37,827 nt of DNA, from positions 1-37,827 of IMG/VR virus record IMGVR_UViG_2534681663_000017; one strand, written 5' to 3'. The DNA comes from a virus. Taxonomy: Duplodnaviria > Heunggongvirae > Uroviricota > Caudoviricetes. The position numbers were made by a program, and so were the translations under genes. Under the pieces are notes generated by a model. The model saw only the letters and a list, made by a program, of their open reading frames with translations, ran no database searches and was not told the origin of the DNA. This document shows, piece by piece, positions 4,572 to 22,468 of the stretch (positions within the stretch are counted from its first letter, which is position 1; every line of letters begins with the position of its first letter).

Positions 4572-4798
4572 TGGCTGATGCAATGGATCTCGTACAGCAG
4601 CGCGTTGAAGAAGAACGCCAGCGCCATATCCGTGCTGCCCGTGCCAAAACACCGGGCGTGTCTCGCGTGCTTTGTATTGAATGTGAAGCGCCAATTCCGC
4701 CAGCACGCCGCCGCGCCATTCCTGGAGTGCAGCTTTGCATTACCTGCCAGGAAATCGCAGAGCTGAAAGGCAAACATTACAACGGAGGGGCTGTATGA
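4571..4798 (+). CDS. TraR/DksA-family C4 zinc-finger protein
   Basis: 75 aa with CxxC...CxxC arrangement (CIECEAP...CITCQEIAE) typical of phage TraR/DksA-like zinc fingers; translationally coupled on both sides. Confidence 0.7.
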   Translation: MADAMDLVQQRVEEERQRHIRAARAKTPGVSRVLCIECEAPIPPARRRAIPGVQLCITCQEIAELKGKHYNGGAV

Positions 4799-5652
4799 GC
4801 ACCATCCTGAAATGGGCGGGTAATAAAACCGCCATTATGTCCGAACTGAAAAAATACCTTCCTGCTGGCCCGCGACTGGTTGAACCTTTCGCGGGTTCTT
4901 GTGCTGTGATGATGGCGACGGATTACCCCAGCTATCTGGTTGCGGATATTAATCCTGATTTAATCAACCTCTATAAAAAGATTGCCGCTGATTGCGAAGC
5001 GTTTATATCTCGTGCCAGAGTTTTATTTGAGGAAGCAAACAGTGAGCTGGCTTATTACAACATAAGACAGGAGTTTAATTACTCAACTGAAATTACTGAT
5101 TTCATGAAGGCGATATATTTCCTGTATCTCAATCGTCACGGTTACCGTGGTTTATGTCGCTATAACAAGAGCGGGCATTTCAACATTCCCTACGGTAATT
5201 ATAAAAATCCGTATTTCCCTGAAAAAGAAATTCGCGCATTTGCAGAGAAAGCCCCGCGGGCAACGTTTATCTGCGCCAGCTTTGATGAAACGCTGGCGAT
5301 GTTGAAGGCGGGGGATGTGGTGTATTGCGATCCGCCGTATGACGGTACGTTTTCCGGCTATCACACTGATGGTTTCACTGAAGATGACCAGTATCACCTG
5401 GCATCCGTTCTTGAACATCGGTCGTCAGAAGGTCATCCGGTCATTGTTTCTAACAGTGACACATCCCTGATTCGTTCGCTGTATCGCAATTTCACTCACC
5501 ACTACATCAAGGCAAAACGCAGCATCGGCGTGTCGGCTGGCGAGAGTAAATCTGCAACAGAAATCATTGCTGTTTCCGGGGCGCGCTGCTGGGTGGGATT
5601 TGATCCTTCGCGTGGCGTGGATAGTTCTGCTGTGTACGAGGTGCGTGTATGA
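4795..5652 (+). CDS. dam: DNA adenine methyltransferase (Dam-like, N6-adenine MTase)
   Basis: Starts [11 protein letters not shown] (ATG 4795, overlapping the previous stop as ATGA); contains FAGSCAV SAM-binding-like motif and catalytic DPPY (CDPPYDGTF). Confidence 0.85.
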
Positions 5653-8063
5653 GTCATGCCGATATGAGCGACTCTAGCGGCTTTAACGAGGCCGCTGCAG
5701 CATTTTCATGGAACGGCCCGAAAAAGGCCATAAACCCTTATCTGGACCCGGCGGAAGTTGCGCCGGTTTCTGCGCTTTCAAACCTGATCACTCTGTATGC
5801 TGCCGATAACGAGCAGGAACAGCTGCGCCGCGAGGAATTGAGTGAACAGGTCTGGGAGCGTTATTTCTTTAATGAATCCCGTGATCCTGTCCAGCGCGAA
5901 ATGGAGCAGGATAAGCTCATTAGTCGGGCAAAGCTGGCGCATGAGCAGCAGCGTTTTAACCCGGACATGGTCATTCTGGCGGACGTCAGCGCCCAGCCCA
6001 CCCACATCAGCAAGCCGCTGATGCAACGTATCGAATACTTCAGCAGCCTGGGCAGGCCAAAGGCTTATTCCCGCTATTTGCGTGAGACGATTAAGCCATG
6101 TCTGGAGCGACTGGATTGTGTACGCGACAGTCAGCTATCTACTTCTTTCCGTTTTATGGCAAGCCATCAAGGGCTGGAGGGCCTGCTGATCCTGCCTGAA
6201 ATGAGTCAGGATCAGGTGAAACGCCTGTCCACCCTGGTAGCTGCGCATATGAGCATGTGTCTTGAGGCCGCTTGTGGTGATTTGTATACCAACGATGACG
6301 TAAAGCCAGAAGAAATCCGCAAGACATGGGAAAAGGTGGCAGCGGAAACCCTGCGTCTGGATGTTATCCCGCCTGCGTTTGAGAAACTTCGTCGGAAAAG
6401 AAACCGCCGCAAACCTGTGCCCTATGAACTCATACCGGGTTCGCTGGCACGTATGCTTTGCGCCGACTGGTGGTATCGAAAATTGTGGAAGATGCGTTGC
6501 GAATGGCGGGAAGAGCAGTTGCGTGCTGTCTGTCTGGTCAGCAAAAAAGCATCTCCCTATGTCAGCTATGAAGCCGTGATGCATAAACGTGAGCAGCGCC
6601 GCAAGTCGCTGGAGTTTTTCCGTTCTCATGAACTGGTGAACGAAGACGGAGACACGCTGGATATGGAAGATGTGGTAAACGCCAGCAGCAGCAACCCGGC
6701 ACATCGCCGCAATGAGATGATGGCCTGCGTTAAAGGTCTGGAGCTTATCGCGGAAATGCGCGGTGACTGCGCCGTTTTCTACACCATCACATGTCCGTCA
6801 CGTTTCCATTCCACGCTCAATAACGGCAGGCCCAACCCGACCTGGACAAATGCGACGGTAAGACAAAGCAGCGATTATCTGGTCGGCATGTTTGCTGCAT
6901 TTCGTAAGGCGATGCACAAAACCGGGTTGCGCTGGTATGGCGTACGGGTGGCTGAGCCGCACCATGACGGTACTGTGCACTGGCATCTCATGTGTTTCAT
7001 GCGCAAAAAAGACCGCCGCGCCATTACTGCATTGTTGCGTAAGTTTGCCATCCGTGAAGACCGCGAGGAGCTGGGCAATAACACGGGCCCACGCTTTAAG
7101 TCTGAGCTGATAAACCCACGCAAAGGAACGCCGACAAGCTACATCGCAAAATACATCAGTAAGAACATTGACGGGCGTGGTCTGGCTGGCGAGATCAGCA
7201 AGGAAACGGGTAAATCCCTGCGTGATAACGCCGAATACGTTAATGCCTGGGCGTCTCTGCATCGTGTTCAGCAGTTCCGCTTCTTTGGTATTCCGGGGCG
7301 CCAGGCTTACCGTGAACTGCGATTGCTGGCTGGTCAGGCGGCAAGACAACAGGGTGACAAAAAAGCAGGTGCGCCGGTACTGGATGATCCGCGTCTTGAT
7401 GCCATCCTGGCTGCTGCTGATGCTGGTTGTTTTGCCACCTACATCATGAAGCAGGGCGGCGTACTGGTTCCCCGCAAATATCACCTTATCAGAACAGCTT
7501 ATGAAATTAACGAAGAGCCGACTGCCTATGGCGATCACGGTATTCGTATTTATGGCATCTGGTCACCCATTTCAGAGGGCAAGATCTGCACTCATGCAGT
7601 GAAGTGGAAAATGGTTCGTAAGGCCGTTGACGTTCAGGAGGCGGTAGCCGACCAGGGCGCTTGCGCCCCTTGGACTCGTGGCAATAACTGTCCCCTTGCT
7701 GAAAATTTGTACCAACAAGGGAAAGACAAATCAGCTGATGGGGGCTCCAGAACGGACATTACCCGCATGGATGACAAGGAATTGCACGATTACCTGCACA
7801 GTATGAGCAAAAAAGATCGCCGGGAGCTGGCAGCAAGGTTGCGCTTGGTGAAACCGAAACGGCGTAAAGACTACAAACAGCGAATTACAGATCATCAGCA
7901 TCAGCAGCTCGTCTATGAACTGAAGTCCAGAGGATTTGATGGCAGCGAGAAAGAAGTCGATTTGCTCCTTCGCGGTGGCAGTATTCCGTCAGGAGCAGGC
8001 TTGCGTATCTTCTATCGGAACCAGCGTTTGCGGGAAGATGATAAGTGGCGGAACCTGTATTAA
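5649..8063 (+). CDS. A: Replication initiation endonuclease, P2 gpA family (rolling-circle initiator)
   Basis: 804-aa ORF; HUH-like metal motif [11 protein letters not shown] and paired-tyrosine region YIAKYISKN, as recalled for P2 A; start overlaps dam stop (ATGA). Confidence 0.9.
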
Positions 8064-8158
8064 TTACGCGGGTTAACAATTCGTGCTCTTAATAATACCA
8101 GGCATATCAGGCTGATGAACGTAAAAAAACGTTTTACATCAGTAAGATTATTATATAC

Positions 8159-8174
8159 TGTAAATATAAACAGT
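8159..8174. promoter_or_regulatory. LexA (SOS) box CTGT-N8-ACAG
   Basis: CTGTAAATATAAACAG (flanks TACTGT...ACAGTG) matches the E. coli LexA operator consensus; lies 43 bp upstream of the small ORF/DinI-like operon. Confidence 0.6.
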
Positions 8175-8216
8175 GGTTATGTATACAGCATTTCTTGTGG
8201 TGTCATAGGAGGAAAG

Positions 8217-8405
8217 ATGCAGGACTATTTTTTGGAGTCTTTGAAGCTCCAGCGCATTGATTTTTTTCTTAAGCTTGTAGCGGCTAGTGAGTGTAGTGAT
8301 GAAGAGAAGGGGCTGGCTTTGCAGTGGGGTTCTGAACTAACAGATGAACTCATGGCAAAAATCAGAACCCACGAATACAACCGCTCAATGGATGTCATCA
8401 GTTGA
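8217..8405 (+). CDS. Small hypothetical protein, first gene of LexA-box operon (possible N-terminal part of a Tum-like antirepressor)
   Basis: 62-aa ORF from ATG 8217 with AGGAGG 3 nt upstream; ends 10 bp before the DinI-like gene. Confidence 0.4.
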   Translation: MQDYFLESLKLQRIDFFLKLVAASECSDEEKGLALQWGSELTDELMAKIRTHEYNRSMDVIS

Positions 8406-8415
8406 GGTGACTTTT

Positions 8416-8649
8416 ATGCGCATTGAAATAATGATCGATAAAGAGCAGAAGATTAGCCAGTCTATCCTGGACGCCCTTGAATCCGAGCTTTACCGCAATC
8501 TGCGCCCCCTGTATCCCAAAACGGTAATTCGTATCCGCAAAGGTAGCTCTAACGGTGTGGAACTGACCGGACTGCAACTGGACGAAGAAAGAAAACAAGT
8601 GATGAAAATTATGCAGAAGGTGTGGGAAGACGACAGCTGGCTGCATTAA
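8416..8649 (+). CDS. DinI-family protein (Tum C-terminal-domain-like)
   Basis: MRIEIMIDKEQ...ILQKVWEDDSW aligns by eye with E. coli DinI (MRIEVTIAK...ILQETWESADDW); GAGGTGA upstream of ATG 8416. Confidence 0.75.
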   Translation: MRIEIMIDKEQKISQSILDALESELYRNLRPLYPKTVIRIRKGSSNGVELTGLQLDEERKQVMKIMQKVWEDDSWLH

Positions 8650-8694: not shown

Positions 8695-8915
8695 GAACAA
8701 CTAGTTTAGTGGGGCATTAGTCATGGGGTAAAATACAGTAACCATTATTTTCACTTCCGCTCAGATTTAACCGAACGTTAGTTTTGCTACGTATGATGGG
8801 CTGCAAATTACCTTTTGGGATTTGTGATAGATACGAAAATCCTATTAGATGCTTGTTAGACCGGAAGCGCCACTTCGAACGAAAAGTAATGGCCACTTAT
8901 GCCGGTTTAAAAGCC

Positions 8916-9446
8916 TTAACCTTGTATAGTTATTTGAATATTTTCTTCATTGACACCAAAGTATAGGGCTAGCCCTGCTTTTGCCTCCTGAAGTGTTAAC
9001 GGCTTAACTACATTTTCTTCTTCTTCTTCGTACTCATCACCCGCTTGATCGACAATCGAATTAGTCGGGGTTAATTTTGGAAGAGCTTTAAATTCCAACT
9101 TGTCAGCCTCAATGCCAATGTCTTTGAGGTTGCGATAAGAAACGGGATTCCGATTGCCATCCCATTGTCCTGGGATGTCAATTTCAGCATAAGAATTGAT
9201 GTTTATGATCCAGCGTTTAGGGTTTTCTGGAGCCCTGCTTACTCCCGAGATTCGACCGATCATAAAAGCATGATGATGTTTTGCTTCTTGTGATCCCCAG
9301 TCCTTTCTCGAATTTTGTACACAAACTAAATATTCGTGCTTAGCTGCATGGCTGGCGTCAAGTCTCCATGCTTGGCTTCCCCCTGTGTTCAAAATCTCTG
9401 TTAAACCACGAGCAGTAAGTACAGTAATACAGTTGGTAGTAGCCAT
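8916..9446 (-). CDS. Hypothetical cargo protein at the old/tin-equivalent position (acidic EEEEE stretch), candidate defence or accessory gene
   Basis: 176-aa ORF on the opposite strand to the early operon, RBS GGAGTCAC before ATG 9446, AT-rich codon usage; no motif recognised. Confidence 0.55.
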   Translation of the reverse strand: MATTNCITVLTARGLTEILNTGGSQAWRLDASHAAKHEYLVCVQNSRKDWGSQEAKHHHAFMIGRISGVSRAPENPKRWIININSYAEIDIPGQWDGNRNPVSYRNLKDIGIEADKLEFKALPKLTPTNSIVDQAGDEYEEEEENVVKPLTLQEAKAGLALYFGVNEENIQITIQG

Positions 9447-9763
9447 TGAATTGTGACTCCGTCTTTTTTAGAGAAATACTATTGATGAATGTAGTTTACG
9501 TATTTTTTTATTGAGTAGTCAAGTTAGTATTCTGCTCGTTATTGGCTGTTTTTTGAGTGTTGTGAGTTAGTACTTTGTGTAGTACCTCTTGGTTTATGAG
9601 GGTTAAATCTAAGTTATGACAAAGGGAGGCAGGGGGAACGCGCAGCGCAAGGGGTACAGGAGGCCATAAGGACTCACTTGAAGTAAGAAAAGATCGATAA
9701 AGCAACAATGCATGTCTATGCCGCATGAATTCGCATGATCGTTTGAGGATCGTTTTAGCTGAG

Positions 9764-9791
9764 GCCCGCTAGGAATGGCGGGCTTTTGTTT
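9764..9791 (+). terminator. Rho-independent terminator-like hairpin (GCCCGC-loop-GCGGGC + TTTTGTTT)
   Basis: 6-bp GC stem, 8-nt loop, followed by a T-tract; located just upstream of the cos-like motif. Confidence 0.4.
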
Positions 9792-9832
9792 ATGTCATGC
9801 AAGTGCATGAAAACCACTACATAAAGCGGGCA

Positions 9833-9851
9833 GGCGTGGCGGGGATACGAG
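9833..9851 (+). other. Candidate cos site (cohesive-end motif GGCGTGGCGGGGA...)
   Basis: GGCGTGGCGGGGATACGAG followed by GCGCGC resembles the 19-nt cohesive ends recalled for 186 (GGCGTGGCGGGGAAAGCAT) and P2 (GGCGAGGCGGGGAAAGCAC); orientation relative to Q is as in P2. Match is partial and recalled from memory. Confidence 0.35.
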
Positions 9852-10133
9852 CGCGCGCACCTTCTAATAATTACAAAGTCATTGAGATATGCAGGGGATA
9901 TTCTATATTTCATTTAATCGATATACCCAACCGAGCTACTAGATTGATTGTGCAAAGTTAATCAACTAACTATTAGGTGAAAATATATTCCCAATAGTTA
10001 TCATTCAGATTTATTTAATTCCTCGTTCGTATCATTTTTTATTTACCAATAAGCTGTGTGATTTTTATGTTAAATTAACGGCAATAGCATAATATGTTGT
10101 GAAAATGTGATGAGATCTACTTGATATTATTTT

Positions 10134-10139: not shown

Positions 10140-10216
10140 GGTGTTAATTGTTAGTCAGCTAAACGGTGTTACATTTTATTTTCAACGAAATTAAGTTTTT
10201 GTCATGGAGAGGCTTT

Positions 10217-11038
10217 ATGAAGGTTAGTTTTGATGTTGTTATTAAAAGTGGTGCTTATGATGTTGATATGGATTACGCGCTTAAAACATTAGCTGGTACA
10301 TCGAATGTAGTTTGCCTTTTGGCAGAAGCGATACTTCGTGGAAGAATTATTGAACGGCGTACCCATGCAAATGATATCAGAGCAAAGCTTAAACACAGTT
10401 TTCCGGGTTCTTATGGTCAAAAATTTGACATCGAGATAAATGACTCGACACTGATTTCTCGTTTGAATTCTATGGGACGTAGTGTTTTCTCTGAAGTAAT
10501 GAGTTACTATATTTGTGAAGCGCTATATGTTGAGCATAATGGTTTGACAGATGCAGCACAGAAAATCATTGATAGTTTAGTTGCAATAGAGGATGAGCTT
10601 ACAAAGCGAATTCGTTCCCCACTAAAAGATATGCATAAAGTCACTACAATGAATGGTTATAATGTTGAGTTATCTTATCGAAAACCTGGATCACCAGAAA
10701 ACATTATAACGTTGACACCAGAAACTGAGATTAATATTTCAGATACTGAAATACTACAGGTTTCCCATGATATATCTGTAATCATAACTCGTTTTAATTC
10801 AATGACAGGAAATGGTCGACTTATACTTGAAGGGTATGAAGAACATGGCACTGTAGCATTTGGATTTTATGATAATTTAAGATATGTAACAGAAAACCAT
10901 AAAAGACAAATCACTCAAAACTTGCATCACAATAATGGCCTTCCATCAGATAGATGGCAATATATGAATTTAACTGTAAGTGATATGGTTCTTCCTAGTG
11001 GGGATGTTATTAAATATCTAATTCGTAATATACCTTGA
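10217..11038 (+). CDS. Hypothetical soluble protein, gene 1 of AT-rich two-gene cargo operon (candidate defence sensor/partner)
   Basis: ORF track starts at GTG 10166; ATG 10217 has GGAGAGG upstream (273 aa). No recognisable catalytic motif; strongly AT-biased codons. Confidence 0.6.
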   Translation: MKVSFDVVIKSGAYDVDMDYALKTLAGTSNVVCLLAEAILRGRIIERRTHANDIRAKLKHSFPGSYGQKFDIEINDSTLISRLNSMGRSVFSEVMSYYICEALYVEHNGLTDAAQKIIDSLVAIEDELTKRIRSPLKDMHKVTTMNGYNVELSYRKPGSPENIITLTPETEINISDTEILQVSHDISVIITRFNSMTGNGRLILEGYEEHGTVAFGFYDNLRYVTENHKRQITQNLHHNNGLPSDRWQYMNLTVSDMVLPSGDVIKYLIRNIP

Positions 11039-11048
11039 TAGAGTTATT

Positions 11049-11744
11049 ATGAAAATTCACTCTATTAAAATCTTTGCTGCATTAGTAATTATAATTACGT
11101 GGTTGAGTTATTTTGCAAAGTTTGGTGATTGGTTTAACTTCTCGAGTGATACGGCTGTTTGGGGGCAGTTTGGGGATTTTTTAGGAGGGGTGATTAATCC
11201 ACTGCTTACATTTATATCTGTTGTTTACTTGATTAACTCTGTAAATCTTCAGCGAGAGGCGAACGCTAGCCTGATTGCGCTTGAAGAGTTTAAGAAAACT
11301 GAGACCAAATTTTATAACATGCTTGAGTCACAACGAAGTGGCTTCGAAAGCTTTAAAATTGTAGATAGTGTGGATGGGAAACCTTTAGTTATCAAGGACG
11401 GTGACGCGGTTACATATATTGAGGATGTTGTTGTAGAAATGGTAATCCAAGGAAGTACAAAAGGAGAAATCTCAAATAAAATAGGTGGAATGGATAAAGC
11501 GGATAATATATTTAGTATAGTGAGGCGCTTTCATAATATTATTAAGTTGATTAAAAGGGAAATTCCGGAAAACTTAAGAAGTGAATATTATGATAGTTTA
11601 GTTAATATGACTGAGTATAAGCAAATATGTCTTATATTAATATCAATGGAGCTTTTTGATTGGCCTATTTTAAGTAGCATTGATGAAAGTGGTGTGTTTA
11701 ATATTGAGGCATTAATGGAATATAGAAAAGCATTTAGACCATAA
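11049..11744 (+). CDS. Two-TM membrane protein, gene 2 of cargo operon (candidate membrane effector)
   Basis: 231 aa; two N-terminal hydrophobic helices (IKIFAALVIIITWLSYFAKF and FGDFLGGVINPLLTFISVVYLI) then a charged soluble domain; starts 10 bp after gene 1. Confidence 0.65.
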   Translation: MKIHSIKIFAALVIIITWLSYFAKFGDWFNFSSDTAVWGQFGDFLGGVINPLLTFISVVYLINSVNLQREANASLIALEEFKKTETKFYNMLESQRSGFESFKIVDSVDGKPLVIKDGDAVTYIEDVVVEMVIQGSTKGEISNKIGGMDKADNIFSIVRRFHNIIKLIKREIPENLRSEYYDSLVNMTEYKQICLILISMELFDWPILSSIDESGVFNIEALMEYRKAFRP

Positions 11745-11788: not shown

Positions 11789-12820
11789 TCAATCAAGGTT
11801 ATATTTTTTGAATTGAATAATTTTATCTTCTAGCCATTCATTAACTTCTTTCATCCTTTTTTGTAATGGTAAAAGTTCATTTCGAACAAAAACATTCGCT
11901 GCCTTCTCCACATCCCCAAATCCCCCAACATTATTCGGCATTATCCCCATCATTTGTGGCGGCACACGATGCGCCGCCATCATGTCGTCCCGGCTCACGT
12001 TCTTGATATTCAGGAACTCATCCTTCGCCGCCACTTCTGACAACGGGATAATCTGAAGCCCGTCCTTTTTACCGTTAGGCGAGTACATAAACAGGTTACG
12101 GAAGTTACCAGGACCTTTGGCGCTTTTCATCGCATTGCGGAGGTTGTTCACATCCTCCTGGTTCTGCGCAGCATCGGTCATGTACATGATGAAGCCTGCA
12201 TGACTGCCGTTAATGTAATACTTGCGGCGGAACAGCGTGGCGGACTCGTTGAGCAGAGCTGACGGAATGGCAGAAAGATAACCGGGCAGGCCGTAGATCT
12301 CCTGGTTGATGTCCGGTTCCATCAGATGAAAAATGCTGCCTTTCGTGAACTGATACGGCTGGGGTGTCATACCGTATTGCACAAACCAGTAGGTATCCAG
12401 GTCTAACCCGCGTCGGGTGTATTTTGCCAGCGCAGGCTCAAGGGCGATAACTTCACCGAATCGGTTCGTGCGTTTCTCCAGGTAGGCGTTACCAAATACC
12501 AGATAGTCCTGCACAAAACGCGAAAAAGCCTGCTGGCTGAGCAGCGGATGAGGGATATAGGTACTGGTCAGAATGTTGCACTTTACTGCAATCGGGGAAC
12601 TGTGATGCACGGCAGCGCGGAAGGTGCGCGCCAGTCCGTCAAAGCTGACGGGCGGCTCATACCAACGGTCCATCTGTACGCATTCCACATAGTCCAGCAG
12701 TTCTCGGCGGTCCAGAACAGGAACGGGATCGCCGAAGCTGAATGCTTCGGCTGTAGTCTGGTTTTTAAGCTGGATCTGTTTCGTCGCCGCAGCGCGGTTC
12801 TTCTTACTCTTTCCCATCAA
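11789..12820 (-). CDS. Q: Portal (capsid) protein, P2 gpQ family
   Basis: 343-aa ORF, size and position match P2 Q; translationally coupled to P upstream on the minus strand. Confidence 0.9.
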   Translation of the reverse strand: MMGKSKKNRAAATKQIQLKNQTTAEAFSFGDPVPVLDRRELLDYVECVQMDRWYEPPVSFDGLARTFRAAVHHSSPIAVKCNILTSTYIPHPLLSQQAFSRFVQDYLVFGNAYLEKRTNRFGEVIALEPALAKYTRRGLDLDTYWFVQYGMTPQPYQFTKGSIFHLMEPDINQEIYGLPGYLSAIPSALLNESATLFRRKYYINGSHAGFIMYMTDAAQNQEDVNNLRNAMKSAKGPGNFRNLFMYSPNGKKDGLQIIPLSEVAAKDEFLNIKNVSRDDMMAAHRVPPQMMGIMPNNVGGFGDVEKAANVFVRNELLPLQKRMKEVNEWLEDKIIQFKKYNLD

Positions 12821-20094: not shown

Positions 20095-20533
20095 ACTGCA
20101 GAAGGTGGACGACTGGCTGAGTGCTTTGCTGGCGAATCTGGAACCAGCCGCAAGAAGCCGCATGATGCGCCAGCTGGCGCAGGAACTGCGCCGGACACAG
20201 CAGCAGAATATCAGGATGCAGCGCAACCCTGATGGCAGCAGCTATGAACCTCGACGGGTAACAGCACGCAGTAAAAAGGGGTGCATCAAACGTCAGATGT
20301 TTGCAAAGCTGCGCACCACAAAATACCTGAAAACTGCCGCCAACGCCGACTCTGTCAGTGTGCAGTTTGAAGATAAGGTGCAGCGCATTGCCCGCGTTCA
20401 CCATTATGGCCTGCGTGATCGAGTTAGATATAAGGGGCCAGAAATACGTTATACAGAGCGACGTCTATTAGGCTTCTGCACTGAGAGTAACGATGCTATT
20501 AGTATAATTTTACTTCGTTATCTAACTAGTTGA
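20087..20533 (+). CDS. S: Tail completion protein, P2 gpS family (C-terminal about 35 codons AT-rich and probably remodelled by the downstream insertion)
   Basis: GTG start overlapping R stop; N-terminal two-thirds GC-rich and S-like, while the last ~110 nt are AT-rich like the adjacent island. Confidence 0.75.
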   Translation: MAELQKVDDWLSALLANLEPAARSRMMRQLAQELRRTQQQNIRMQRNPDGSSYEPRRVTARSKKGCIKRQMFAKLRTTKYLKTAANADSVSVQFEDKVQRIARVHHYGLRDRVRYKGPEIRYTERRLLGFCTESNDAISIILLRYLTS

Positions 20534-20605
20534 TATGTCTTGTTTTTTGTGGGTTTTTATAACATCATATTGGCTCTGTTATAAATAGTATGGAGAGTTT
20601 GATTG

Positions 20606-21811
20606 ATGAAAAAAAATAACGATATCAATAAACAAGTAAAATCAGAAACAGAAAATAATTCATCTGCAAATATGAATGGAAGTGGCTCGGATGAAATCCT
20701 TTCTAAGAGCACCTCTGGTACGGTGGTATGGGGAGATAACAGTTTTGGAAGTATTTCTAAATATATTAATGAGGTACTCGGTAAGAATTTATATTTAGAT
20801 ATAATTAAATCTCTTGATGCTAAGTTGAAAGCACCAGTTCAAGCTAATAGAACTACTATATTAAAGAACCTGAAGGGTAATTTCAAAGAGGAAAATCTTG
20901 TGCTTGTATTAGGCGCTGGAATTTCTTTGGATTATAAAATACCTACATGGGATGAATTATTAAGGAGGTTGCTTGCTAGAGCGTTACAAGATACTAATGA
21001 AAATCAGCAAGTTGTTGCGACATTATTTAATCAGGTGTTCGGGCCAAATGCTTTGATTGCGGCTAGATATTTAAAGTTACATTTTGAAAGTGCTAACACT
21101 CCTCTTGAGAAAGAAATTCAGAAAGTGTTATATCAATTTTATGATAGCACCGAGAGTCAAACGCTTAAGGCGATAAAGAAATTATGTATTTCTGCGGGGA
21201 AGGCTCCGGGGTTAGATTCTGTCATAACATATAATTATGACGACATACTAGAGCAAACATTACAAAACGCAGATGTTGGTATTAAATTTAAGGTTATATA
21301 TAAAACTGGGCAGCATGCAAAAAAAGATGAGTTGCCAATATATCATGTTCATGGATATCTTCCCTTAAATGGTAAGATTGATAGTGATGACAGCCTAGTT
21401 TTATCGGATGAAAGTTATCATCGGCAATATATGGATTTATATCACTGGAGTAATATGGTTCAGTTGAATAAATTCAAAGACAATAATTGTTTGTTTATAG
21501 GACATTCCTTTACTGATCCAAATTTAAGACGTCTGCTTGATGCTGCTAAAAAGTTAAGGGGTAATGATTCTAAACCTCATTACTTAATAAAATGTCGACA
21601 CTCAAAAGATGATGTTATAAATAAAATTCTAAAAGGTTCACGTCAAGATTTGAATGACGGGCTAGTCGACGATATAGACAATGTTGCCCGTTCTTTATTA
21701 GATACTGTACATAAATTTGAAGAAATTGATGCTAACTCTTTTGGTGTTAATGTTATATGGATTGATAATTTTACTGAAATAGGCCCCATAGTAACTGATT
21801 TAACTCAATAA
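20606..21811 (+). CDS. Standalone SIR2-like (sirtuin-fold, putative NAD+-consuming) protein, candidate anti-phage defence effector
   Basis: 401 aa from ATG 20606 (GGAGAG upstream); motifs LVLVLGAGISLDYKIPTWDELL, YNYDDILEQ and IYHVHGY match the SIR2-like domain pattern seen in defence-associated sirtuins; AT-rich island between S and V. Confidence 0.8.
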   Translation: MKKNNDINKQVKSETENNSSANMNGSGSDEILSKSTSGTVVWGDNSFGSISKYINEVLGKNLYLDIIKSLDAKLKAPVQANRTTILKNLKGNFKEENLVLVLGAGISLDYKIPTWDELLRRLLARALQDTNENQQVVATLFNQVFGPNALIAARYLKLHFESANTPLEKEIQKVLYQFYDSTESQTLKAIKKLCISAGKAPGLDSVITYNYDDILEQTLQNADVGIKFKVIYKTGQHAKKDELPIYHVHGYLPLNGKIDSDDSLVLSDESYHRQYMDLYHWSNMVQLNKFKDNNCLFIGHSFTDPNLRRLLDAAKKLRGNDSKPHYLIKCRHSKDDVINKILKGSRQDLNDGLVDDIDNVARSLLDTVHKFEEIDANSFGVNVIWIDNFTEIGPIVTDLTQ

Positions 21812-21821
21812 ATCTTGTTTT

Positions 21822-21860
21822 AGTTGTGCCGGCAATGGCACAACTGTCTTAAGTTATTTT
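21822..21860 (+). terminator. Perfect 9-bp hairpin plus T-tract after the SIR2-like gene; the same dyad is a TGT-N12-ACA motif (21825..21842)
   Basis: AGTTGTGCC-GGCAAT-GGCACAACT followed by GTCTTAAGTTATTTT; contains TGTGCCGGCAATGGCACA (TGT-N12-ACA). Confidence 0.45.
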
Positions 21861-21889
21861 CCTAATAATATTTTTGTAAGTTGTGTGCC

Positions 21890-22468
21890 ATGAACGCACA
21901 ACTTACAGAAATCATGCGCCTTATCACCAACCTGATCCGCACTGGTGTAGTCACCGAAGTGGACCGGGAAAACTGGCTTTGTCGGGTGAAAACGGGCGAC
22001 CTTGAAACCAACTGGATTAACTGGCTGACGCTGCGCGCGGGTAATGCCCGCACATGGTGGAAACCATCGGAAGGTGAGCAGGTGGTGCTGCTGAGTCTGG
22101 GCGGCAATCTGGAGACCGCCTTTGCGCTGCCCGCTGTCTATTCGAATCAGTTCGCACCACCGTCGACGTCGGCGGACGCCTGCGTGACAGAACATCCTGA
22201 CGGTGGCTGGTTTGAATACGAACCCGCCACCGGGCGCTGGTATGTCAGGGGCATCAAATCAATGGTCATTGAGGCCGCTGACAAAATCACCATGAAAACC
22301 AGTGAGTTTGTACTGGAGGCTGACCGCACGCGCATTAACAGTGAAGTGGTGATCAATGGTGGCGTTACCCAGGGCGGCGGTGCAATGAGTTCTAACGGAA
22401 TTGTGGTTGATGCACATCAGCATACTGGCGTCCTGAAAGGCGGCGACACAACCGGAGGCCCGGTATGA
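21890..22468 (+). CDS. V: Baseplate assembly/spike protein, P2 gpV family
   Basis: N-terminus MNAQLTEIMRLITNLIRTGVVTEVD resembles P2 V as recalled; ORF track starts 9 nt earlier at TTG. Confidence 0.8.
   Translation: MNAQLTEIMRLITNLIRTGVVTEVDRENWLCRVKTGDLETNWINWLTLRAGNARTWWKPSEGEQVVLLSLGGNLETAFALPAVYSNQFAPPSTSADACVTEHPDGGWFEYEPATGRWYVRGIKSMVIEAADKITMKTSEFVLEADRTRINSEVVINGGVTQGGGAMSSNGIVVDAHQHTGVLKGGDTTGGPV

Follow-up and report, generated by a model that had tools for sequence, protein, structure and literature searches.

A mobile 176-residue protein encoded in the tin/old slot of a P2-like prophage has a predicted PUA-like reader fold

PUA-like readers of modified bases in bacteria are chiefly known for targeting type IV restriction enzymes and, more recently, for sensing a modified nucleotide. 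Phage P2 carries the genes tin and old on the opposite strand, in the stretch that separates the end of its A operon from cosR, with transcript starts that adjoin cos; Tin poisons T-even replication via gp32. The gpA-gpQ interval has been described as a defence hotspot (Rousset et al. 2022, PMC9122126). Here we analyse a 176-residue, minus-strand gene found at this position in IMG/VR virus record IMGVR_UViG_2534681663_000017, of which positions 1 to 37,827 were studied (37,827 nucleotides (nt), referred to below as the window). The window is a P2/186/Fels-2-like prophage. That the gene is real, conserved and mobile cargo is practically certain, and structure modelling, which is evidence of moderate weight, makes a PUA-like reader fold of its product probable.

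The gene is present where the original prediction placed it, begins with ATG, and encodes a protein identical to one in RefSeq (WP_000246368.1, 'hypothetical protein') that is found in eight complete Escherichia coli genomes with differing neighbours. The accession WP_000246368 was not found in the literature. The gene and its signals are the following:

8916..9446, minus strand: coding sequence of 176 residues (WP_000246368.1), a member of the unnamed family phrog_37247; evidence, homologue clusters and a ratio of nonsynonymous to synonymous substitutions (dN/dS) of ~0.10
9457..9460, minus strand: Shine-Dalgarno sequence GGAG, 10 nt 5' of the ATG, read directly from the sequence
9493..9522, minus strand: promoter-like, sigma-70-like site TTGACT-18-TAAACT, identified solely by its agreement with the consensus (9 of 12 positions)

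The gene thus has a ribosome-binding site of its own, as had been claimed. The promoter-like site lies on the cos-proximal side, as for P2 old-tin, and is a candidate for the gene's own promoter; the gene is a self-contained mobile cassette that probably has a promoter of its own as well. Its composition is foreign and AT-rich, again as described earlier, with a GC content of 42.0% for the open reading frame (ORF) and 40.8% for the whole insert versus 53% for gpA and 50% for the portal gene. Comparison with the copy in an Enterobacter P2-like prophage (88% protein identity) gave a dN/dS of 0.059/0.573, and purifying selection on the gene is strong.

Within the window, the gpA replication endonuclease (5649-8063, plus strand), a small ORF and DinI (to 8649, plus strand) are followed by the 176-residue gene, then by two AT-rich genes (10166-11038 and 11049-11744, plus strand) and the portal gene (11789-12820, minus strand). 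Alignment with relatives showed that the conserved backbone stops at 8704 and resumes only briefly around cos, before a second variable slot that extends from 9860 to ~11765:

8705..9708, no strand: variable slot 1, a 1,004-bp insert of 40.8% GC whose sole gene is the 176-residue ORF, defined by alignment with relatives
9709..9859, plus strand: conserved 151-bp core between slots 1 and 2, holding a terminator-like hairpin (9761-9786) and the cos site, defined by alignment
9833..9851, plus strand: cos cohesive-end 19-mer GGCGTGGCGGGGATACGAG, matching P2 cosL at 14 of 19 positions, with conserved flanks

The claim that the gene sits beside cos in the equivalent of the tin/old slot is therefore correct, since tin and old of P2 occupy the same interval, on the opposite strand and with cos-side starts. 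The insert of slot 1 is absent from phage 500465-1, and other single genes replace it elsewhere. A DinI-type backbone is present in ~1,300 of 5,426 complete E. coli genomes; slot 1 is empty in many of them, holds the 176-residue gene in eight, and in other E. coli prophages holds a single small DUF6236, DUF8087, DUF4145 or unnamed gene (e.g., H94, H124, H125). The P2-like remnant of BL21(DE3) likewise shows an empty DinI-cos slot (or an alternative single gene). Slot 2 varies independently: beside the same 176-residue gene we observed an Old-like ATP-dependent nuclease, HipA plus HIRAN, or the window's own gene pair, and TIR genes are among the slot 2 contents of sister prophages. The 'cos hotspot' of P2 is really two independently assorting slots that flank cos.

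The gene had been taken for an orphan, which it is not. A word-indexed homologue search returned 74 clusters, all unnamed and without Pfam domains, and an exhaustive profile search of 1.84 billion representatives, with clusters at 50% identity, yielded a family of 1,008 representative clusters at E<=1e-3 (770 at E<=1e-10). Nearly all members are 160-200 residues long and have the same layout. When only the N-terminal domain was used as a profile, 750 clusters were found, of which the best 120 are all stand-alone and unnamed. Hosts include Gamma-, Beta- and Alphaproteobacteria, Nocardia/Rhodococcus, Chloroflexi and Myxococcota, and the homologues are neither structural nor replication proteins.

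A tblastn search of PLSDB located the family on 193 plasmids (0.27%), 163 of them mobilizable and typically 4.4-6.4 kb in size. Small mobilizable plasmids, not phages, are the main habitat of the family, in disagreement with the phage-specific origin that had been implied. The ColE1-type carriers belong to Enterobacter, Salmonella, Klebsiella, Citrobacter and E. coli, and the family gene is the sole non-backbone gene on several plasmids of 4.4-6 kb. pRAY-type Acinetobacter plasmids also carry the family (~60 Acinetobacter plasmid records in the same search); on the aadB plasmid pABLAC2 (NZ_CP007714.1; locus L092, 1532-2017), the gene is directly downstream of mobC-mobA. It is a constant 'hypothetical' on pRAY-type aminoglycoside-resistance (aadB) plasmids of Acinetobacter.

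Other copies lie in a TraC-TraU-TraG transfer operon, on a small integrase-bearing island, in a different P2-like prophage near UmuDC-like genes, in the same slot of an Enterobacter P2-like prophage, in a two-gene islet beside ParDE in Pectobacterium, and on a plasmid next to parA/parD/rep. In addition, two lytic Brevundimonas jumbo phages encode relatives with 28% identity. DNA similarity between the window and the plasmid copies (72-75% nt identity) is confined to the ORF. Together with a slot that is empty or filled by other genes in most of the ~1,300 genomes, this bears out the earlier view of the gene as horizontally acquired cargo.

To survey the neighbours, all genes within 5 kb of 88 loci (52 member clusters) were clustered all against all, using crude gene calls. 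No partner family was present near more than four of the 52 member clusters, which rules out a conserved partner gene; the recurring neighbours were integrases, ParA and phage structural genes. The mobile unit is a single gene, consistent with what had been proposed. A conserved adjacent operon partner, the mark of a type II toxin-antitoxin system, was likewise not found, and the ParDE beside one copy is a separate complete module.

Two local associations were seen in this survey. In one subclade of ColE1 plasmids (L090 1156-1746, L093 1615-2199, L040 and L025), a gene of ~195 residues, annotated as a tetratricopeptide repeat (TPR) protein with repeats that appear Sel1-like by eye, begins 4-5 nt 3' of the family gene, which suggests that the two form an operon there. 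As a partner for the window locus this Sel1/TPR gene was rejected: it is limited to the one subclade, absent from most of the family, and tblastn found no remnant of it in the window. The commonest neighbour family was N6_N4_Mtase, with five matches, most of them in a single related phage lineage and the rest in scattered cases. Methyltransferases occur within a few kb of the phage-borne copies at L031, L035 and L037 (1.3-2.6 kb away), L034, L075 and L010; the related alphaproteobacterial phage lineage has two N6_N4 enzymes, L010 has a C5-methyltransferase, and the Dam-like methyltransferase of P2-like prophages (window ~4795-5652) is a backbone gene. Writers and readers may be linked here, but the signal is weak, with lineage as a confounder, and we have not used it as evidence.

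Profile and structure-prediction searches with the 176-residue protein gave a blank at the sequence level, a PUA-like fold and unnamed homologues. AlphaFold2, run with the family alignment, returned a model with a mean per-residue confidence (pLDDT) of 84.6, exceeding 90 at residues 11-120, falling below 50 at residues 127-144, which are predicted to be disordered, and reaching ~85 in a C-terminal helix (152-163). The model and the family alignments divide the protein as follows:

9072..9446, minus strand: N-terminal domain, residues 1-125, a PUA-like beta-barrel of the EVE/YTH/ASCH class (predicted fold)
9003..9071, minus strand: acidic linker (residues 126-148), variable and predicted to be disordered; its net charge is -6 (family median -3); from pLDDT, alignment and charge
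8916..9002, minus strand: conserved C-terminal motif PLTxxEAKAGLAxxFGVxxxxIxITIxG, residues 149-176, plus the stop codon, from alignment and model

The predicted N-domain has the small pseudo-barrel with the beta1-alpha1-beta2...beta6 order common to EVE, YTH and ASCH. Foldseek retrieved the same fold classes with weak statistics (best E 0.009; template modelling score ~0.4 over the full length), the ASCH domain of TRIP4 being the top match and ZmASCH, CXorf40A/EOLA1 and YqfB also among the matches. The BFVD viral fold library gave weak matches only, to uncharacterised jumbo-phage proteins and ASCH proteins. By sequence, Pfam gave no match at E<=1 except a spurious one to Phage-Gp8 (E 0.11), NCBIfam gave none, and phrog_37247, of 'unknown function', was the sole match in PHROGs. 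phmmer and family profiles found nothing among all PDB sequences, including no solved EVE protein at E<=10, and the profiles of EVE (PF01878), YTH (PF04146) and ASCH (PF04266) did not match the family. The earlier statement that the protein has no recognisable motif thus holds at the sequence level (Pfam, NCBIfam, PADLOC and PDB profiles are all blank) and fails at the level of the fold. Because the fold classes match while no sequence or profile method links the family to EVE, YTH or ASCH, we place it, on the strength of the model, as a divergent unnamed member of the PUA-like superfamily that is separate from all three.

Across the N-domain (~120 residues), T11, G23, W27, N45, H57, A60, F61, R78, W95, R99, P101 and Y104 are invariant or nearly so, and family alignments show the motifs GGSQAW, VCVQN and W.GNRNPV.Y; about a dozen aromatic and polar residues are unchanged from Enterobacteria to Actinobacteria and Chloroflexi. 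The whole protein has an isoelectric point (pI) of 5.4 (family median 5.6), and the N-domain has a pI of 8.7, with a family median charge of 0. Among the best 150 of the 1,008 representatives, non-standard layouts comprise four fusions or tandems and several N-domain-only proteins. The N-domain is joined to DUF3427 and HNH in P0212, to AbiTii in P0200 and to MazE/AbrB in P0206, and is present in tandem in P0112; the HNH and AbiTii modules were confirmed by both Pfam and PADLOC. The candidate pocket residues are kept in the fusion proteins. Since the foreign modules replace the C-terminal motif, the N-domain would be a sensor placed ahead of an effector, with the 28-residue motif at the effector position.

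Set against described proteins of the same fold class, the family stands apart. EVE proteins (PH1033/UPF0310, human THYN1, and the EVE modules of VcaM4I and McrB) are alike in fold class only, with no sequence or profile similarity, and do not have the acidic linker and C-terminal motif of the 176-residue family. Furthermore, the stand-alone EVE and ASCH proteins described to date accompany restriction-modification or helicase-nuclease operons, whereas this family is solitary and carried by mobile genetic elements (MGEs). YTH domains (YTHDC1/2, YTHDF1-3, Mmi1, MRB1) are eukaryotic readers of N6-methyladenine (m6A) in RNA, and none matched the family by sequence; they have basic RNA-binding surfaces, compared with a net charge of about zero for the N-domain. 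ASCH proteins (TRIP4/ASC-1, ZmASCH, YqfB, EOLA1/CXorf40A) share the fold class, yet the 176-residue protein gave no match to Pfam ASCH. Kinship to P2 Orf91 (DUF3850) was tried and rejected, at an hhalign probability of 0.3%.

The role of the protein may be likened to that of the reader module in type IV restriction. Nonetheless, it cannot be classed as a type IV enzyme, as both a nuclease and a partner are lacking: searches for HNH, PD-(D/E)XK, GIY-YIG and PLD domains found none in the protein, and there is no adjacent nuclease gene. In contrast, PD-T4-3 (GIY-YIG plus reader, specific for 5-hydroxymethylcytosine) and the PUA/DUF3427-HNH endonucleases carry their own nuclease. The PUA domain of PUA-Cal-HAD binds free N6-methyl-dAMP (m6-dAMP) as an immune trigger (PMC12871103), but it does so within a filament of several enzymes, whose effectors are Calcineurin-CE and HAD, and the 176-residue protein has no effector. 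Beside DNA mimics such as Ocr, ArdA and Arn, which would be strongly acidic over their whole surface, the features are mixed: the protein has an acidic pI and a linker of charge -6, its folded N-domain is neutral to slightly basic, and the predicted fold is PUA-like and not like that of Ocr or ArdA. With P2 Tin and Old it shares the interval, the opposite strand, a cos-side promoter (in the window, a consensus match only) and the nature of non-essential AT-rich cargo. Homology to either was rejected (BLASTP E 1.6 for Tin and 0.30 for Old; different fold class), and Old, unlike the 176-residue protein, is an ATPase-nuclease.

We tentatively propose, with somewhat less than even confidence and from the structural model, that the 176-residue protein is a stand-alone ligand reader composed of a PUA-like domain, an acidic linker and a C-terminal helix-strand motif. 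It would be expressed in the lysogen from its own promoter and would bind a modified base in a candidate pocket of W27, F61, W95, Y104, H57, N45, R78 and R99; the base would belong to a free nucleotide or be flipped out from a nucleic acid. Invariance of these residues across phyla argues for a chemically constant ligand rather than a fast-evolving protein target; for a reader that is neutral and has no effector, modified mononucleotides are among the possible ligands. The protein would act through binding, without cutting, and the C-terminal motif might mediate self-association or docking onto a host factor. In this way it would interfere with incoming phage DNA in a modification-dependent manner, much as type IV restriction does but without a nuclease, and would be a single-gene exclusion system.

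We consider a role in conflict among MGEs, phages and hosts to be reasonably probable; specifically phage exclusion is favoured only mildly, at a level that we would still call doubtful. Exclusion is plausible because the gene lies in a hotspot, its product has a predicted PUA-like reader fold, and relatives are fused to HNH or AbiTii. It is favoured because the tin/old slot adjoins defence cargo in sister prophages (Old-like nuclease, HipA plus HIRAN, TIR), because the opposite-strand, own-promoter layout is that of a lysogenic-conversion gene, and because the N-domain is found fused to DUF3427 plus HNH, which is type IV restriction-like, and to AbiTii. In earlier work (Lutz et al. 2019, PMC6765204), proteins with a DUF3427 fusion restricted T4gt in vivo although their nuclease activity in vitro was slight or absent, a precedent for restriction with hardly any detectable cleavage.

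Several observations weigh against phage exclusion. An acidic protein with an N-domain of about zero charge is unlike a DNA-coating protein. The invariance of the pocket over phyla whose phages have very different DNA chemistry fits a universal mark (m6A, 5-methylcytosine or a nucleotide) better than a phage hypermodified base, and a reader of universal marks would see host DNA also. Tiny mobilizable plasmids, a tra operon and lytic jumbo phages suit counter-defence or maintenance as well as they suit defence. None of the families in PADLOC-DB v2, which includes PD-T4-3, Old and AbiTii, matched the protein at E<=1. Finally, the P2-hotspot tables list the gene only as 'hypothetical' and the hotspot also holds non-defence cargo (PMC9122126), while the papers on pRAY and on a Rahnella plasmid assign the gene no function (it is 'hypothetical' in the pRAY papers).

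A wider formulation seems to us possible, if rather unlikely: a solitary reader of ~170 residues without a catalytic effector would by itself be a device of immunity or counter-immunity that spreads with plasmids, conjugative elements and phages. Such a device could stop phages with marked DNA by binding, hide the methylated sites of its own element from type IV nucleases, or soak up an m6-dAMP-like alarm, and the C-terminal 28-residue motif would be an oligomerisation or docking element.

Of the alternatives to phage exclusion, the one that survives best, although we judge it unlikely, is that the protein helps its carrier to evade host immunity. It might do so by covering the element's methylated bases against modification-dependent (type IV) nucleases such as McrA, McrBC or Mrr after transfer to a new host, or by acting as a sponge for a modified-nucleotide danger signal, e.g., the m6-dAMP that triggers PUA-Cal-HAD. 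The carriers agree well with such a role, as they include every kind of transferable element: the 193 plasmids (most of them 4-6 kb), a tra operon, prophages, and lytic jumbo phages, which rarely hold host-protective genes. So does the location of the gene downstream of mobC-mobA in pABLAC2 and adjoining par and rep genes elsewhere. In the prophage, however, the gene is an independent, opposite-strand lysogenic-conversion unit that lies outside the early operon, where an anti-defence gene would be needed.

The properties of the protein can also be read both ways. The protein is small, acidic and single-domain, with a neutral reader and no effector, which suits a role as sponge or shield better than one as a restriction factor that coats DNA. 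The invariant pocket fits a universal mark or nucleotide, and a sponge is conceivable because free m6-dAMP is known to be an immune trigger that a PUA domain binds (PMC12871103). Yet the known inhibitors of methylation-linked defences, such as Ocr and Arn, are DNA mimics rather than readers, and we found nothing specific in the literature on ASCH, EVE or YTH in anti-defence contexts. In the rare fusions, the partner of the N-domain is a defence-type effector (HNH, AbiTii) and not an anti-defence module, and in a genome of 35 kb, or in a jumbo genome, there would be too many sites for stoichiometric shielding to be plausible. The proximity of several phage-borne copies to DNA methyltransferases would suit evasion, but it is weak, comes mostly from one phage lineage, and in P2-like prophages involves the backbone gene dam.

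That the protein is instead an ASCH-type enzyme appears quite improbable. In this case, it would strip off or hydrolyse a modification carried by a nucleic acid, a nucleoside or a nucleotide (YqfB and EOLA1 deacetylate N4-acetylcytidine), or would be a small ribonuclease like Zymomonas ASCH. ASCH proteins are among the closest structural matches, with TRIP4 at the top, the invariant polar residues T11, N45, H57, R78 and R99 are typical of active sites, and a neutral or acidic surface suits a small-molecule substrate. Nevertheless, no sequence match to ASCH or to any enzyme family was obtained, and the fusions put the N-domain in a sensor position ahead of a separate nuclease, as is found for non-catalytic readers.

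We regard it as similarly improbable that the protein serves its element only as a housekeeping factor, reading the methylation of the element's own DNA (e.g., hemimethylated sites after replication or transfer) or RNA so as to tune replication, copy number, partition or expression, with no part in conflict. The plasmids on which the gene is the sole non-backbone gene, its place beside parA/parD/rep in another plasmid family, the MazE/AbrB-type DNA-binding domain that takes the place of the C-terminal motif in P0206, and the strong purifying selection are all compatible with this idea. Carriage is nonetheless sporadic, at eight of ~1,300 E. coli prophages with the backbone and 0.27% of PLSDB plasmids, and the location is a swap-prone hotspot rather than a regulatory region. 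A core maintenance role is further disfavoured because a core factor would track one replicon type, whereas replication of the carriers is unrelated (ColE1-type, Rep_3-type, RPA-type, rep-less pRAY, P2 gpA, conjugative elements).

Although hotspot recombination does leave scars, such as an 80-residue family remnant in a Herminiimonas contig, the chance that the ORF is a random or decaying frame in AT-rich junk is negligible and is excluded by the conservation data, since a dN/dS of ~0.10 and full-length conservation over ~1,000 clusters and several phyla make it more than chance, the predicted fold is compact and confident, and the identical protein persists in eight E. coli genomes among differing neighbours.

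This large, new PUA-like family of ~1,000 clusters from several phyla has no name in Pfam, NCBIfam or PADLOC; its reader-linker-tail architecture is distinctive and its ecology unusual. Jumbo phages, prophage hotspots, conjugative elements and tiny plasmids all exchange it as a single gene. If mere binding were to give a phenotype, a minimal, effector-less mechanism would join the repertoire of defence and counter-defence, and a recurrent 'hypothetical' would be explained on clinically common small plasmids, including the pRAY-type aadB plasmids of Acinetobacter and the ColE1-type plasmids of Enterobacter, Salmonella and Klebsiella. Were the device formulation true, the family would be a very widespread new class of binding-only players in epigenetic conflict. 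If the gene is ordinary accessory cargo, the anatomy of the P2 cos-proximal hotspot is still refined to two independently assorting slots. At 531 bp the gene is easy to clone, and the natural HNH and AbiTii fusion relatives could serve for comparison.

Two further loci of the family had unusual surroundings. Herminiimonas contig L089 (4810-7543, minus strand) holds a thymidylate-synthase-like gene, an unknown gene and aGPT-Pplase3/ADDT, a phage-type thymidine-hypermodification module. We rejected a link to thymidine hypermodification and did not use it: the L089 'member' (7971-8213, plus strand) is read as a recombination scar because only an 80-residue C-terminal remnant is present. At L100/L101 (1669-8619), an unannotated 355-residue gene lies 50 nt 3' of a distant member, near DUF6685, a 643-residue unknown protein and a PIN7-domain protein; this could be an uncharacterised defence-like island.

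The prophage in the window carries other cargo as well. Slot 2 holds a two-gene cassette of 33% GC between cos and portal (10166-11038 and 11049-11744, both on the plus strand), encoding proteins of 290 residues (phrog_13337) and 231 residues (phrog_8999; N-terminus hydrophobic and probably membrane-spanning). Searches of Pfam, NCBIfam and PADLOC gave no match for either. The pair was found in only two other of the 5,426 complete E. coli genomes, both without the 176-residue gene. It is arguably a stronger uncharacterised defence candidate than that gene, because the same slot holds Old-like nuclease, HipA plus HIRAN or TIR genes in sister prophages. A second cargo site lies in an AT-rich island (~20400-22000), where a gene of 33-37% GC is inserted among late/tail-region genes. 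Its 402-residue product (20603-21811, plus strand) has a SIR2_2 domain (Pfam E 1.4e-21), with LmuA (E 8e-22) and ThsA-type SIR2 (E 1e-19) as the best PADLOC matches, and is likely to be an NAD-depleting defence protein.

The program-made ORF list over-extends both small genes 5' of the 176-residue gene (8115-8405 and 8344-8649, plus strand). The RefSeq calls there are a 62-residue protein (phrog_698, unknown) at ~8217-8405 and a 77-residue DinI-like protein at ~8416-8649, and the early operon probably ends with them. Further patches of low GC (34-42%) lie towards the left end, at 1-800 and 1601-2400 of the window, possibly around the integrase/immunity region.

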